64,000 nucleotides of DNA from Candidatus Yanofskybacteria bacterium (GCA_003514055.1 DOSG01000002.1:13985-77984); one strand, 5' to 3'; shown: positions 14,448-18,361, counted from the stretch's first letter. Notes: generated by a model from the sequence alone, not told the origin. Made by a program: numbers and translations.

Positions 14448-15497
14448 ATGATTAAATGGCCATTCGGTATAACTGAATATCTTAAGGACTTCTTTATTCC
14501 TTCTAAGAACAACAACTATCAGCCCAAAAGTCTGGGCAATAGGAGTTTTTTCATAATCCTTTCGATACTTGTAGCGATAAAGCTCCTAAGCATTTTTTCT
14601 TTTTATGAATTTCTTGGTGCCGATATTTTTAATCAGGTTTCTCAATCTGACCTATTGGCGCTAACCAATGATGTAAGGAGAGACAACGGGGTCCCAGTAT
14701 TAAATCAGAGCGTGGCCCTAAATGCCTCGGCTCAGATGAAGTTGGCAGACATGTTCGATAAAAATTATTTTGCGCACGAGTCCCCAAGCAATATTTCTCC
14801 TTGGAATTGGTTTGATCGAGCTAAATACAGTTATTCTATCGCGGGTGAGAATCTGGCTATGAACTTCGTTTCTACTAATGAAGTTGTTAAGGCTTGGATT
14901 AATTCAGGATCTCATAAGAAAAATTTACTATACAAAGATTTTGTTGATACTGGTATAGCCGTTGGTTCTGGCAAGATTAATGGGCAGAATACTATAGTCG
15001 TAGTTCAGCATTTCGGCAAGCCATTAGTCCAGCCTAAGTCGGCTAGTGTAGTTTCTGAACCGAGACCAATTGTTAAAGCTAGTACGGCGGCCGTAAGTCC
15101 CAAACCCAAGGCCAAGCCGACAGTAAGTTCGACGCCAGAACCGGTTAAAAAGATTAGTCCGATATCTTTGCTAATGGCTCCCGGCGGACAAGTAAAAGAT
15201 GTCATTACGACGATCAGCAGTGATGAGAACAACCAAGAGAAGGACCCAGCTTATGGGGCTTATTACTCGAACGTAGCGTTAAATGATGCTTTGATCGCTG
15301 GAGCGCTGTTGGCTGCCCTGATCCTAATCCTCAAAATTTTTGTTGTCATAAAGGTCCAGTATCCACGGCTAATACTTAGGGGAATCCTCCTGCTGGTAAT
15401 TAGTCTTGCTCTCATATATTTCAAGGATTATAGATTCTTGCAGGGCAATATAATTATCAGTACTGGGAACACGGCCTCAATACAAAATCAAAAATAA
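14448..15497 (+). CDS. Membrane-anchored CAP/SCP/PR-1 (YkwD-like) domain protein with Pro/Ser/Lys linker and C-terminal TM
   Basis: CAP motifs ...AHESP...GENLA...W..S..H..N.L; N- and C-terminal hydrophobic helices. Confidence 0.7.
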   Translation: MIKWPFGITEYLKDFFIPSKNNNYQPKSLGNRSFFIILSILVAIKLLSIFSFYEFLGADIFNQVSQSDLLALTNDVRRDNGVPVLNQSVALNASAQMKLADMFDKNYFAHESPSNISPWNWFDRAKYSYSIAGENLAMNFVSTNEVVKAWINSGSHKKNLLYKDFVDTGIAVGSGKINGQNTIVVVQHFGKPLVQPKSASVVSEPRPIVKASTAAVSPKPKAKPTVSSTPEPVKKISPISLLMAPGGQVKDVITTISSDENNQEKDPAYGAYYSNVALNDALIAGALLAALILILKIFVVIKVQYPRLILRGILLLVISLALIYFKDYRFLQGNIIISTGNTASIQNQK

Positions 15498-15501
15498 TAA
15501 A

Positions 15502-16368
15502 ATGAGAAGCTTATTTTTTATAAAAAAGAATAGTGCTGTAATCAAGACTTCAAATCCGGAGCCGGGGTTTTATGCTTCCCTGGAAGAGGTGAAAGAAGTT
15601 CCGACTACATATAACCGCGTGATAAGATTACTCGGTGTCTTTGCTGTGGCTTTCTTGGTAATCGTGTTGATAGCTAATATTGGAAATATCTTTGGTATCG
15701 CTAACGATTCGGTCAATCCAAAGCTAACCGAAGAAGAGAAGAATGCTCAGATGACAGAATTTTATAGGAAAACCTATGGCTATGGATCGGGCTATCCGGA
15801 TGATGGTTTTGGTGGATCAAATGTACCAGAGCTGAGCGCTTATCCAACTAATGGAAGTGTGGCTGGAGACATAGATTTCATCCCCGCTAACAATAATAGT
15901 CAAGCACAAACAAATAATTCGGCAGCCTCAATCGGGAGCTCCGTACAAGCAATTTCTTCTAACTATGTTTACATCCCCAAGTTAGGAATAAAGGTACCGC
16001 TGGTGATATCGAGCAAAACAGATTCAAAATCTCTACTCGCGGAATTGAATAAAGGCGTTTTAGTATATCCTCAATCGTCTATCCCGGGCGACGGGGGCAT
16101 GACGGTTATCGTTGGGCACTCTTCTTCTAATACTTTAGGAGCTAAATATGGACGAGTTTTCTCTGGTCTATCTAAACTAAGCGGGGGAGATCAGATATTC
16201 ATCAATTTCAATGGAAAAGATTATACATACAATGTAGAGATAAAGAAGACGGGCACAGTAGAAGAGCTTGCCAATCTCGGGATAAACAATGACTTGGTGC
16301 TGGCTACCTGCTGGCCAATCGGGACCGATAGGAACAGGATAATAATAGGTGCTAATTTACAGAGGTAG
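15502..16368 (+). CDS. Sortase-family transpeptidase
   Basis: N-terminal TM; catalytic His (TVIVGHSS), Cys (LVLATCWP) and Arg (TDRNRIIIGA). Confidence 0.75.
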   Translation: MRSLFFIKKNSAVIKTSNPEPGFYASLEEVKEVPTTYNRVIRLLGVFAVAFLVIVLIANIGNIFGIANDSVNPKLTEEEKNAQMTEFYRKTYGYGSGYPDDGFGGSNVPELSAYPTNGSVAGDIDFIPANNNSQAQTNNSAASIGSSVQAISSNYVYIPKLGIKVPLVISSKTDSKSLLAELNKGVLVYPQSSIPGDGGMTVIVGHSSSNTLGAKYGRVFSGLSKLSGGDQIFINFNGKDYTYNVEIKKTGTVEELANLGINNDLVLATCWPIGTDRNRIIIGANLQR

Positions 16369-16420
16369 GCGGGAAAGGTAGTTGACACGATTAAAATAAA
16401 ATGACATAATATAAAATAAC

Positions 16421-18361
16421 ATGAATATGACTAATATATCAACAAAAAACATAACGAGGTCGATCTACGCAATAGGACTGATAGCTATTGTCGCTTTCTC
16501 TGTGACCTCATTTTTTGGCGAGGCGGTGGCCTATGACTTGCATCCAGATGTAACTTATACAATTACTGAAACTAGTGGTTATCAGTATGATGTTACTATA
16601 CCCAACCAGGGAAATAGAACCATACATTACATTGCCCAAATAACTAATCATGGTCCTGGCCCAGTCACTGTTGAGAAGGCTGCTTTTCATCATAACGTAG
16701 CTAACTGGCAGGCCACAGATGAATTTCTTGATCAGAGTTTATTCCAGATGACTGGGAAGACTGTTTATCAAGAAGGCGAATCGGGCGTCACGGAATTTTT
16801 CTACGATACTGCCCGAAAGAATTGTGGACGCGTTCAGATCGATGCTGGATTTCGAGACCCTCAAAATGGAAATCTCGTTTTCATAGGAACGATGATCAAC
16901 TATGGCGTCGATTGTTCGACACCAACGCCAACGCCGGTACCATCACCGACATTAAGCCCAATCATTTCCGTTCCGGCATGCTCGAACGTGGATTATGTAG
17001 CTCAAATTTCATATCCTTCGGTTGGTAATGACATTCGCATATTTATAGACGACGAAGTCTCTTCTTCGTCAGCATGGGATAAGACTCTTAGCGGATTAAG
17101 TGGATATACCACAGCTCCTGCCGGGTTTAATCCCAGGTTGCCTGGAATGCCGAGCTTGGCACTTCATCCAGGAACGCGTTATTACAGTTTCATTCAAAAT
17201 AATTCTAGTATAGATGGCCCAACGGTAAGCTGGATGGTAGAGAGATGCTCAACGCCGACTCCAACGCCAACACTGACACCGACTCCGACACCGACGCCAA
17301 CGCCGACACCGACGCCAACGCCAACACCGACACCGACACCGACACCGACACCGACACCGACACCGACACCGACACCGACTTCCTATCTTGATATATCTAA
17401 GACTGTCAGGAATATAACGTCTGGAAGTGGTTATGATTCCGAAACTGTTAACGCCAATTCTGGCGACACGGTGGAATTTACTATAAGACCGAGAGTAAAC
17501 TCTTATGGTTCCGGATACGTGGGCAACTTAAGAGTCAGTGATTACCTTCCAAGTGGATTGAGATATTTATCCGGTAGCACAACTCTTGATGGGAGCTACC
17601 AATCTGATGGACTAACCACGGGTGGTATTTATCTAGGTACTAGATATGGCGATTACAATTCGGTAATAAAATTCAGAGCTGTAGTTGAATCGACCGGATA
17701 TTATAACTCAAATACTATCACCAACACGGCCACGGTTACTGCCGACAATCTTCAGTCTGTTAACGATACGGCTTCTGTTTATGTGAATAATTACGTATCG
17801 AACAATTATAATCTAAACATACAGAAATTTGTTAGAAATACATCTACTGCCGAAACTATAGAGAAGACGTCTACTAGGGGGTCTTCTGGTAACACAATCG
17901 AATTTATCTTGCACGTCAGAAATCTTTCTTCGACTACTATCAATAACGTGAATGTGTTCGACCCATTACCCGCTGGGCTCAGTTATAATCCGAATAGCAC
18001 GAGCTTGAATGGATATATCGTAGGCGACGGAATAATTAATGGCGGAATAAATATTGGTTCTTTAGCAGCTAATCAGGAATCAATAATTAGATTCTTCACT
18101 ACGGTTAATGCTGGAATAAATAACACCGTCATAAACAACACTGCTCAGGCTAGAGCTGATAATGTTCCGACTGTTTATTCTTCGGCTGCAGTAATAAATA
18201 TAAATACTGGAATTGTGTTGGGTGCCTTGACTATCAAGACTGGCGCGGGAAGCATGATTGGCTATTCCTTAGTGGGTGCGCTTATGATAACTTTGGCCTA
18301 TTATATAATCGAGAAGAAAAGGCCAGAACTATTGCCGCAAGTGTTTACTAAGAAGGCCTAA
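16421..18361 (+). CDS. Large cell-surface protein: signal peptide, TP-repeat linker, DUF11-like repeat domains, C-terminal TM plus basic tail (putative sortase substrate)
   Basis: TPTPTP... run; C-terminus ...IKTGAGSMIGYSLVGALMITLAYYIIEKKRPE resembles sorting-signal architecture; adjacent to sortase. Confidence 0.7.
   Translation: MNMTNISTKNITRSIYAIGLIAIVAFSVTSFFGEAVAYDLHPDVTYTITETSGYQYDVTIPNQGNRTIHYIAQITNHGPGPVTVEKAAFHHNVANWQATDEFLDQSLFQMTGKTVYQEGESGVTEFFYDTARKNCGRVQIDAGFRDPQNGNLVFIGTMINYGVDCSTPTPTPVPSPTLSPIISVPACSNVDYVAQISYPSVGNDIRIFIDDEVSSSSAWDKTLSGLSGYTTAPAGFNPRLPGMPSLALHPGTRYYSFIQNNSSIDGPTVSWMVERCSTPTPTPTLTPTPTPTPTPTPTPTPTPTPTPTPTPTPTPTPTPTSYLDISKTVRNITSGSGYDSETVNANSGDTVEFTIRPRVNSYGSGYVGNLRVSDYLPSGLRYLSGSTTLDGSYQSDGLTTGGIYLGTRYGDYNSVIKFRAVVESTGYYNSNTITNTATVTADNLQSVNDTASVYVNNYVSNNYNLNIQKFVRNTSTAETIEKTSTRGSSGNTIEFILHVRNLSSTTINNVNVFDPLPAGLSYNPNSTSLNGYIVGDGIINGGINIGSLAANQESIIRFFTTVNAGINNTVINNTAQARADNVPTVYSSAAVININTGIVLGALTIKTGAGSMIGYSLVGALMITLAYYIIEKKRPELLPQVFTKKA
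17255..17388 (+). repeat. Tandem hexanucleotide microsatellite (ACACCG / ACGCCA)n, about 22 units, encoding the TP linker
   Basis: Read directly: ccgacaccgacaccgaca... perfect run. Confidence 0.85.

Follow-up and report, generated by a model that had tools for sequence, protein, structure and literature searches.

A probable sortase and substrate pair with a membrane-bound CAP-domain partner encoded downstream of map in Candidatus Yanofskybacteria

Gene Content and Genomic Context

Directly after map in a genome of Candidatus Yanofskybacteria, an ultra-small groundwater bacterium of the Candidate Phyla Radiation (CPR), three genes probably encode a dedicated sortase and its substrate together with a co-operonic envelope partner, in an arrangement that is conserved at this position. 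The stretch of the genome that was analysed spans 64 kb (hereafter the window), and further sortases or substrates may be encoded elsewhere in the genome. The principal features are as follows:

14448-15497, + strand: gene for a CAP/YkwD-like protein (349 aa)
15502-16368, + strand: gene for a sortase (288 aa)
16421-18361, + strand: gene for a fibrillar-adhesin-like sortase substrate, below called the adhesin (646 aa)
19013-22461: 23S rRNA gene, downstream of the three-gene set, with 5S also downstream

These are not chance open reading frames (ORFs), since they are long and their family matches exceed curated thresholds, and the identities given to them in an earlier, sequence-only reading were borne out. 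The 349-aa protein contains a CAP domain (PF00188; E 1.3e-13; 52.3 bits against a cut-off of 21.1; model positions 1-117, fully covered), the 288-aa protein a Sortase domain (PF04203; E 4.7e-17; 62.3 bits against 26.6), and the 646-aa protein two DUF11 repeats (PF01345; E 1.2e-18; 67.9 bits against 24.6), together with a match to TIGR01451 (54 bits against 24).

Immediately upstream are genes for S5, L15, SecY, Adk, and Map, and downstream the rRNA genes, which places the set between the ribosomal cluster and the rRNA genes, as had been described. The set had also been supposed to stand in the place of infA-rplQ, and none of these genes was found: a Pfam search of window ORFs of at least 100 aa did not detect rpoA, rpsM, rpsK, or rplQ, and the 651-nt spacer preceding the 23S gene holds no plausible copy of infA or rpmJ. 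A one-off replacement, however, does not fit the recurrence of the order secY-adk-map-CAP-sortase-adhesin-23S in related Paceibacteria genomes; map-CAP-sortase occurs in seven further loci, with the adhesin gene next in five of these, and the 23S gene lies downstream of the module in six loci. The module directly after map is thus a trait of a lineage comprising Yanofskybacteria and related Paceibacteria.

The Sortase

Within the 288-aa protein, the following features were located:

aa ~41-64: N-terminal transmembrane (TM) helix, followed by a low-confidence linker
aa 152-288: catalytic domain
16117-16119, + strand: H206, the catalytic His
16309-16311, + strand: C270, the catalytic Cys, in the motif LATCWP
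16336-16338, + strand: R279, the catalytic Arg

H206, C270, and R279 are invariant in an alignment of 17 sequences and align with the His, Cys, and Arg of the solved class C sortases 8gr6 and 4d7w; both the Cys and the His are in place, and the proposal of a sortase with a His/Cys/Arg triad stands. The family is marked by the signature GHSS / TCWPxGT. For the AF2 model of the catalytic domain (pLDDT about 80), the top Foldseek matches in the PDB were class C sortases (6ixz and others, E 4.9e-10), with classes A and E close behind.

The enzyme falls into no curated NCBIfam sortase class (A-F, GN). It scored 52.5 bits against the class C cut-off of 160, 44 against 140 for SrtD, 42.5 against 165 for class D, 39 against 160 for class E, 26 against 166 for class F, and 16 against 158 for GN, and it did not match the class A or class B models. 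For ten further sortases of the family, scores were 26-84 bits where 140-166 would be needed, and the class that scored best was C, D, or F depending on the enzyme; no class B model matched any enzyme tested, that is, the window sortase and these ten.

The solved catalytic domains nearest to this one, both by sequence (8gr6, 4d7w) and by structure (6ixz and others), are those of pilus-specific class C sortases, at 24-32% identity and Foldseek E values of about 1e-9 to 1e-10, and CnaA/CnaB-type isopeptide domains such as CLIPPER (DUF11) are found in pilins too (PMC12617251). A class C-type polymerase could then polymerise the 646-aa protein head-to-tail, giving a covalent pilus, with no anchoring of monomers to the wall. 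This is very unlikely, given the low class C score, the shift of the best class across the family, and the nearly equal matches to class A and E structures. Unlike class C sortases, moreover, the protein has no C-terminal membrane helix, ending at aa 288, 9 residues past R279; no DP[FWY] lid motif was recognised, in a protein whose region upstream of the catalytic domain is of low confidence in AF2; and the adhesin carries no YPKN-type pilin motif. Nor is there a sortase/pilin cluster: the sortase has a single substrate gene beside it, and neither a second (housekeeping) sortase nor minor pilins turned up in the window or the syntenic loci.

The Putative Adhesin

The 646-aa protein and its gene show the following features ahead of the C-terminal sorting signal:

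aa 1-37: signal-peptide-like segment (...GEAVA|YD)
aa 38-166: Ig-like domain N1, with a TP linker between N1 and N2
aa 185-277: Ig-like domain N2, followed by a (TP)n stalk
17255-17379, + strand: hexanucleotide tandem repeat CCGACA, 20.8 copies, coding for the (TP)n linker
aa ~322-456: CLIPPER/DUF11 repeat 1
aa ~463-596: CLIPPER/DUF11 repeat 2, followed by the C-terminal sorting signal

DUF11, the domain now called CLIPPER, has been characterised by experiment as the stalk domain in fibrillar adhesins (PMC12617251). The protein has the layout of such adhesins, with a signal peptide, distal domains, a repetitive stalk, and a surface anchor, in agreement with the earlier description of a signal peptide, TP linker, DUF11 repeats, and a C-terminal hydrophobic segment with EKKRPE; its adhesive function is putative. 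The two repeats align with each other, and inspection against the published domain (PMC12617251) points to candidate isopeptide triads at equivalent positions (K327/D374/N435 and K469/D514/N573), Lys, Asp, and Asn thus standing where expected in both repeats, with no sequence match to a solved CLIPPER structure. The AF2 model (pLDDT 71) shows N1 and N2 as all-beta domains; they occur as mobile modules in other homologues and, compared with PDB structures, gave only generic Ig-like matches, with no Pfam family.

Known CLIPPER fibrillar adhesins (Costa et al., 2025; PMC12617251) likewise have a signal peptide, non-stalk domains at the distal end, CLIPPER domains in tandem, and a sorting domain at the C-terminus, whereas the protein described here has only two CLIPPER repeats, placed proximal to the wall, takes most of its reach from (TP)n linkers, and bears novel Ig-like tip modules and a variant TG signal as its anchor.

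The pentapeptide LPAGL, which had been listed as a possible sorting signal, was rejected. It is the D-x-LP-x-GL core motif of the DUF11/CLIPPER domain, present in both repeats (DYLPSGL and DPLPAGL), and lies about 90 aa ahead of the membrane helix.

The C-Terminal Sorting Signal and Its Linkage to Sortases

The predicted signal was located as follows:

18227-18244, + strand: sorting motif L603-T-I-K-T607-G608, with predicted cleavage between T607 and G608
18251-18358, + strand: hydrophobic membrane helix (aa 611-630), then the basic cytoplasmic tail EKKRPELLPQVFTKKA (EKKRPE..., aa 631-646)

The C-terminus reads ...GALTIKTGAGS-MIGYSLVGALMITLAYYII-EKKRPELLPQVFTKKA and shows, as in homologues, a three-part layout at its extreme end, namely a motif, ~20 hydrophobic residues, and a basic tail. 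An LPXTG pentapeptide is absent from the adhesin, with Ile at the Pro position and Thr at the Leu position. The tail scored 14.7 bits against TIGR01167 (LPXTG_anchor), just under the cut-off of 15.9, the Pfam search gave no PF00746 match in the adhesin, and the tails tested matched none of the NCBIfam signal models. The Leu-Pro that canonical sortases read is missing from the motif, an observation that counts against the proposed pairing.

All 19 of the close relatives carry GA[LI]x[VI][KRP]TG[ASP] and, behind it, a helix and basic residues. The T and G are invariant in 33/33 aligned tails, V/I at position -2 is nearly so, and the looser pattern [VI]-x-T-G-[PASTG], helix, and basic tail was present in 40 of 120 homologues; the pentapeptide consensus is [TN][IV][KRP]TG in the clade and [VI]xTG[PA] in the family. 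A 58-position profile of the tail recovered 297 protein clusters (E <= 1e-3) among 1.84 billion representatives. Of the 150 matches listed, 141 were newly retrieved, and 139 of these place the TG 46-57 residues ahead of the C-terminus, although the invariance of TG among profile matches is partly circular because the profile contains TG. The domains ahead of the tail vary (DUF11 in 38/80; also PKD, fn3, cohesin, cupredoxin, and Kazal), and the tail behaves as a portable sorting domain. Classical signals have short basic tails, whereas in the wider family a long conserved tail follows the helix (YTxT..[KR][KR]RE....[FLM][ND][FLM]). Many of these wider-family tails read (Q/E)VPTGP and resemble, with V at -2, P at -1, and TG, the sortase B 'QVPTGV'-class signal (TIGR03065), a likeness that serves as a lead only.

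A sortase with the GHSS / TCWPxGT signature and a signal-bearing protein are encoded no more than a few genes apart (up to about 5 kb) in the window and in 16 other loci (L001-L004, L006-L008, L010, L011, L014, L021, L024, L032, L084, L085, and L086), one of which, L084, has four signal-bearing substrates close to the sortase. More distant sortases of the family adjoin canonical LPKTG, LPVTG, or LPATG proteins (L017, L025, L028, L046, and L058), which ties the family to TG-type signals. Adjacency of sortase and substrate is not universal, because the sortase gene of L013 and that of L081 are each followed by a gene for a different secreted protein, one without a C-terminal helix.

These exceptions, together with a pentapeptide that is not LPXTG and a sub-threshold score against the curated anchor model, would suit a protein that is merely anchored in the membrane by its C-terminus, the TG being structural and the sortase serving other substrates. 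Such an account is highly improbable, considering that TG is invariant just ahead of the helix across unrelated passenger domains, that proximity to a sortase recurs in the 16 other loci, distant ones included, and that enzymes of this family handle TG signals, as its members beside canonical LPxTG proteins show. From its retention among homologues and its tie to sortases by gene neighbourhood, LTIKTG, an earlier candidate, thus appears to be the actual signal, a non-canonical sorting motif with putative cleavage between T and G.

The CAP-Domain Protein

The following features were recognised in the 349-aa protein:

N-terminal, cytoplasmic: motif FIPxxxNxxxP, conserved and invariant in the family
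aa 33-55: first TM helix (TM1)
14655-15014: CAP domain (aa 70-189)
between the CAP domain and the TM hairpin: linker rich in P/S/T/K
aa ~283-329: C-terminal TM hairpin

It is 100% identical to 'hypothetical protein UW46_C0010G0039' of Ca. Yanofskybacteria GW2011_GWF1_44. Scores against the YkwD model TIGR02909 (88.3 bits; cut-off 171) and the DalA model NF052539 (36.2 bits; cut-off 200) were both under threshold. With YkwD and DalA (PMC10470522) it shares an envelope location and a CAP domain in which the cavity residues His, Glu, and His are conserved; it differs in being an integral membrane protein of three helices, not a secreted protein or lipoprotein. The architecture and the residues H110, E134, H156, and N159, which are typical of the CAP cavity, are invariant in 25 CAP homologues.

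CAP proteins of eukaryotes and of some pathogens function in cell-cell or host interactions, and the three genes stay together in a presumably episymbiotic lineage. The module might on these grounds serve as a whole for attachment to a host, with the CAP protein itself making the contact with a host or partner cell and the adhesin displayed by the sortase. The architecture makes this unlikely: the CAP domain is tethered on both sides, by TM1 15 aa ahead of it and by the hairpin behind the linker, and therefore lies at the membrane surface, beneath the wall, which argues against a role in host contact. The invariant cytoplasmic motif and the invariant H, E, H, and N suggest a housekeeping role for the family instead, and homologues of the same architecture at 30-34% identity occur without a sortase nearby (L082 and L083). 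DalA, the only characterised bacterial relative matched by the models, binds peptidoglycan and acts in cell division (PMC10470522). The earlier proposal of a host- or partner-interaction factor is accordingly set aside; the CAP protein is most likely an accessory factor associated with the envelope or peptidoglycan, and not a host ligand.

The protein is translationally coupled to the sortase. In the window, the sortase start lies 4 nt past the CAP stop, and the two genes overlap or abut in L004, L007, L008, L010, L011, L012, L013, L014, L015, and L081; this pairing was not found in the literature searched. A part for the CAP protein in sorting is tentative, because the more distant CAP homologues occur without a sortase.

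Proposed Mechanism

Under the preferred reading of a dedicated sortase and substrate, the 646-aa precursor would be exported by Sec and retained in the membrane through its C-terminal helix and basic tail, while the N-terminal helix of the sortase would put the catalytic domain outside the membrane. Cys270, assisted by His206 and Arg279, would cut L-T-I-K-T|G between T607 and G608, and the new C-terminus would be joined to an amine of a peptidoglycan precursor, so that the protein becomes covalently bound to the wall; the peptidoglycan genes FtsW, UppP, and Alr are encoded within the window. The two wall-proximal CLIPPER/DUF11 domains and the (TP)n spacer would form the stalk, and the two Ig-like tip domains, predicted to contain disulfides, the likely binding end. 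A putative attachment apparatus of an episymbiont is plausible for the adhesin alone.

The scheme resembles LPXTG/LAXTG anchoring in monoderm bacteria (housekeeping class A and class E) in its membrane-anchored Cys transpeptidase with a His/Cys/Arg triad and a TLxTC-like LATCWP, in a substrate with a signal peptide and a three-part tail of TG, helix, and basic residues, and in the adjoining genes for enzyme and substrate. It differs in the T-I-K-T-G motif, with a beta-branched residue at the Pro position, and in an enzyme without a class A or B match that scores far under the class C-F and GN cut-offs. CPR sortases as such have been described before, as have CLIPPER adhesins; what is new is the variant signal, the sortase clade outside the known classes, and the coupling to a CAP protein.

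A further proposal, possible though doubtful, is that these enzymes form a distinct sortase class centred on Patescibacteria, with its own C-terminal sorting domain and with the CAP partner obligatory in the Yanofskybacteria clade. Its enzymes would be marked by GHSS(S/x) ... TCWP(I/V)GT ... R, and its sorting domain by [VI]-x-T-G-[PA] and a helix, mostly with a conserved cytoplasmic tail of roughly 30 residues; no curated model captures this [VI]-x-T-G-[PA] domain. If so, the three-helix CAP protein may have been recruited, for example, for positioning the sortase on peptidoglycan or lipid II, and the conserved cytoplasmic tail may have an additional role, for instance in recognition, retention, or signalling after cleavage.

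Candidate Promoters and Terminator

Three further features flank the genes of the module:

14393-14421, + strand: sigma-70-like promoter candidate (TTGACA, 17 nt, GATAAT, TG extension; 11/12 matches)
16382-16410, + strand: sigma-70-like promoter candidate (TTGACA, 17 nt, CATAAT, TG extension; 11/12 matches)
18378-18417, + strand: perfect 18-bp hairpin

Both promoter candidates are consensus matches only, in a region where the total of such sites is not above that of shuffled sequences. The first overlaps the end of map, 27 nt upstream of the CAP start, and the second sits in the 52 nt that separate the sortase gene from the adhesin gene, with a -10 element that ends 10 nt ahead of the ATG, so that the adhesin mRNA would be nearly leaderless. 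The hairpin starts 17 nt after the adhesin stop codon and has a folding energy of -34.1 kcal/mol (z = -7.1; 0/200 shuffles fold equally well), a terminator-like end to the module.

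Organization of the locus

On the forward strand, the spc ribosomal cluster closes with genes for S5, L15, SecY, Adk, and Map, the last ending at 14410. Three tightly packed ORFs come next, and then the 23S (19013-22461) and 5S rRNA genes, beyond which lie a hypothetical gene and those for FtsW, RpoB, RpoC, FtsK, and RecA. The three ORFs are:

14448-15497, + strand, ORF1, 349 aa: CAP/YkwD-like membrane protein
15502-16368, + strand, ORF2, 288 aa: sortase
16421-18361, + strand, ORF3, 646 aa: adhesin-like protein, the proposed sortase substrate

None of rpoA, rpsM, rpsK, and rplQ was found among the window ORFs of 100 aa or longer that were searched against Pfam, nor was there a plausible infA or rpmJ in the 651-nt spacer preceding the 23S gene. 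A promoter scan placed sigma-70-like sites matching at 11 of 12 positions, with a TG extension, directly 5' of the CAP gene, the adhesin gene, and the 23S gene; all three fell exactly in intergenic gaps, but because the total site count was not above that of shuffled sequences they are considered only candidate promoters. At the adhesin gene (16382-16421 region), the -10 element of the candidate ends 10 nt 5' of the ATG, so that the mRNA would have almost no leader; another in-frame ATG occurs at 16427. A perfect 18-bp hairpin lies 3' of the adhesin stop codon.

Comparison with homologous loci from other genomes and contigs (L001-L086) recovered the (secY)-adk-map-CAP-sortase order in L007, L008, L010, L011, L013, L014, and L081. 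An adhesin gene comes next in L007, L008, L010, L011, and L014, whereas L013 and L081 carry a gene for a different secreted protein; this conserved protein of about 385 aa (L013:10651-11805 and L081:7886-9049) ends in ...YYG.V.LTYWPK and has neither a C-terminal helix nor a Pfam domain. The sortase gene follows map directly, without a CAP gene, in L001, L005, and L009, and the module occupies another position in L002, L004, and L032. A 23S rRNA gene lies downstream of the module in L001, L007, L008, L010, L011, and L014. In ten further loci the CAP and sortase genes overlap or abut, which suggests translational coupling.

A predicted variant sorting signal

ORF3 consists of a signal peptide, two Ig-like N-terminal domains (N1 and N2), TP linkers, two DUF11 domains, and a tail of the form GALTIKTG-AGS-[20 hydrophobic residues]-EKKRPELLPQVFTKKA; the (TP)n tract is encoded by a 6-nt tandem repeat. 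The sequence-only reading had named LTIKTG and LPAGL as the nearest candidates for a non-canonical sorting motif. LPAGL is instead the D-x-LP-x-GL core of the DUF11 domain, present in both repeats and about 90 aa ahead of the helix, and was discarded. LTIKTG, in turn, is predicted to be the sorting signal on three independent lines of sequence evidence, namely conservation, portability, and proximity to sortase genes.

Among the 120 best ORF3 homologs, 40 carried [VI]-x-T-G-[PASTG] followed by a helix and a basic tail, and each of the 19 close-clade members had GA[LI]x[VI][KRP]TG[ASP]. When 33 tails were aligned, T and G were the sole invariant columns, with V/I at -2 nearly so. A tail profile matched 297 clusters so far (50% identity clusters, among 1.84 billion representatives), 187 of them at E <= 1e-10. 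Of the 150 matches listed, 141 were newly retrieved; in 139 of these, TG is 46-57 residues away from the C-terminus. The invariance of TG among profile matches is partly circular, whereas its C-terminal position and the diversity of the passenger domains are not: DUF11 was found in 38 of 80 proteins, and PKD, fn3, cohesin, cupredoxin, and Kazal domains also occur. The family consensus reads V-x-T-G-P-G-[DE], helix, then Y.YT.T..[KR][KR]RE....[FLM][ND][FLM]. NCBIfam models left the long-tail variants unmatched, and LPXTG_anchor scored below threshold on the window tail.

Genes for proteins with the variant signal lie close to a sortase gene, no more than a few genes and about 5 kb away, in L001-L004, L006-L008, L010, L011, L014, L021, L024, and L032, as well as in L084 (which encodes four of them), L085, and L086, the last three having been reached independently, starting from the substrate side. 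More distant members of the ORF2 sortase family adjoin proteins with canonical LPKTG, LPVTG, or LPATG motifs. When all window ORFs were scanned for TG followed by a C-terminal helix, ORF3 was the sole credible candidate substrate; the remaining matches were polytopic proteins (SecY, UppP, and a holin-like protein) or an antisense ORF. In L084, a 650-kb JGI metagenome contig, the four [VI]xTGPG-tail proteins surround one sortase (1102-9275), and the cluster lies beside genes for Pup ligase, the proteasome, and an Mpa-like ATPase; from this contig, the range of the signal may extend beyond typical Patescibacteria.

The sortase and its class

ORF2 matched the sortase family in Pfam (PF04203, 62 bits). 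Its H206, C270, and R279 are conserved without exception and correspond in alignment to the catalytic residues of class C sortases of known structure. The AF2 model was confident over the catalytic domain (aa 152-288); in the PDB it matched class C sortases best, closely followed by structures from classes A and E. Against the NCBIfam class C, D, E, F, and GN models, ORF2 and ten other family members scored 26-84 bits, under cut-offs of 140-166 bits, with the best-scoring class differing from protein to protein; the class A and B models gave no matches to these proteins. Furthermore, class C sortases carry a C-terminal anchor, which ORF2 lacks, and its substrate ORF3 has no pilin motif. Given these sub-cut-off scores, the missing anchor, and the substrate without a pilin motif, ORF2 is treated as part of a putative unclassified, Patescibacteria-centered sortase clade whose nearest classes are C, D, and E. 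Sortases bearing the signatures TV[IV][IV]GHSSSN and TCWP[IV]GTD were found at 80 loci, most labeled Patescibacteria. One family sortase, from Parcubacteria GW2011_GWA1_42_7 (L086:3705-4871), carries at its N-terminus a fused polytopic domain similar to isoprenylcysteine carboxyl methyltransferase (NF040696, 37 bits, E 2e-9).

The CAP protein

ORF1 contains a full-length CAP domain (PF00188, 52 bits in Pfam) of the bacterial YkwD type, yet falls under the YkwD cut-off (88 vs. 171 bits). The same protein, at 100% identity, is annotated as a "hypothetical protein" in Candidatus Yanofskybacteria bacterium GW2011_GWF1_44. Across an alignment of 25 homologs (28-54% identity) the layout is constant: a cytoplasmic N-terminal motif with invariant P18, N22, and P26 precedes a single membrane helix and the CAP domain, in which H110, E134, H156, and N159 never vary; a variable linker rich in Pro, Ser, Thr, and Lys then leads to a C-terminal helical hairpin. 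The CAP domain is thus membrane-tethered at both ends and unable to reach far. By analogy with DalA, a CAP lipoprotein that binds peptidoglycan (PMC10470522), we infer, with low confidence, that ORF1 may be an envelope or peptidoglycan-associated accessory factor. An obligatory tie to the sortase was rejected, since homologs at 30-34% identity stand without one, and the CAP family is therefore broader than this partnership. The tight CAP-sortase coupling provides a testable handle on the largely obscure function of bacterial CAP proteins.

The adhesin-like protein and a proposed mechanism

N1 and N2 are all-beta, Ig-like, and each bracketed by cysteines. The AF2 model of this N-terminal region was usable (pLDDT 71), and Foldseek searches against the PDB returned only generic Ig-like or two-domain beta-sandwich matches (TM about 0.3), including WxLIP, RbmA, pilus chaperones, and transglutaminase Ig domains. 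DUF11, recently renamed CLIPPER, has been shown experimentally to serve as a stalk domain, stabilized by an isopeptide bond, in fibrillar adhesins (PMC12617251). The two ORF3 repeats carry Lys, Asp, and Asn at equivalent sites, and an isopeptide bond in them is putative; a PDB sequence search with the CLIPPER region gave no meaningful match.

In the most likely scheme, inferred in its cleavage site, acceptor, and ligand alike, the ORF3 precursor would be exported by Sec and retained in the membrane by its helix and basic tail, Cys270 of ORF2 would attack the T607-G608 bond, and the cleaved protein would be transferred to a peptidoglycan precursor. The outcome would be a wall-anchored, stalked protein with N1 and N2 at the distal, presumably binding, end. 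On the peptidoglycan side, the window encodes FtsW, UppP, and Alr.

Relation to known systems

Sortases are common in CPR bacteria (PMC6744442; general statements likewise in PMC5220378), and adhesins joining CLIPPER stalk domains to a sorting domain have already been described (PMC12617251). A search of the literature on sortases or LPXTG in CPR, Patescibacteria, and Parcubacteria found nothing on the motif or the CAP link. The Pam pilus of Saccharibacteria was set aside as unrelated, as it uses donor-strand exchange without a sortase. The variant signal, the conserved long cytoplasmic tail of the wider family, the sortase clade outside curated classes, and the CAP-sortase coupling are considered new, none having been found in the model libraries or literature searched. 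The sortase and adhesin system itself is conventional and its genes were already public as "hypothetical proteins"; existing knowledge is therefore refined, and no new kind of system is described. Where the signal is [VI]xTG, as here, LPXTG-based models would miss the sortase substrates of these bacteria, and the main practical value of the defined signal (297 clusters) is as a direct route to listing the wall-anchored surface proteome of Patescibacteria, adhesin candidates included.

rRNA genes and other features

GC content rises to 0.52 between 48000 and 49500, from about 0.42 elsewhere; the only ORFs there overlap and are antisense-like in composition, and Pfam and Rfam gave no match. Upstream of the 23S gene, a promoter-like site (18508-18537, 11 of 12) is followed ~90 nt further by a GC hairpin and T-run (18626-18650); this segment could give rise to a short transcript or act as an attenuator in the rRNA leader. 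The stretch 18508-18650 had no Rfam match and a fold z-score of only -2.6.

The rRNA locus (18362-19012, 19013-22788) comprises 23S and 5S only; neither a 16S gene nor a spacer tRNA upstream of the 23S was found anywhere in the 64-kb window, and the 16S gene is thus unlinked. The 23S gene contains an intervening sequence of about 200-230 nt (20412-20641) with a closing helix of roughly 20 bp, starting with a perfect tRNA-Met(CAU)-like cloverleaf (20441-20516) and continuing with two hairpins. The cloverleaf scored 43 bits with the Rfam tRNA model (gathering score 29), and ARAGORN called it as well. As a whole, the insert folds at -110 kcal/mol (z = -8.7); in its place, the 23S genes of relatives have 5 nt (L008) or 118 unrelated nt (L001). 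tRNA goes unmentioned in a survey of CPR rRNA insertions (PMC11270868). The insert may be excised by RNase P/Z, which would yield a fragmented 23S rRNA.
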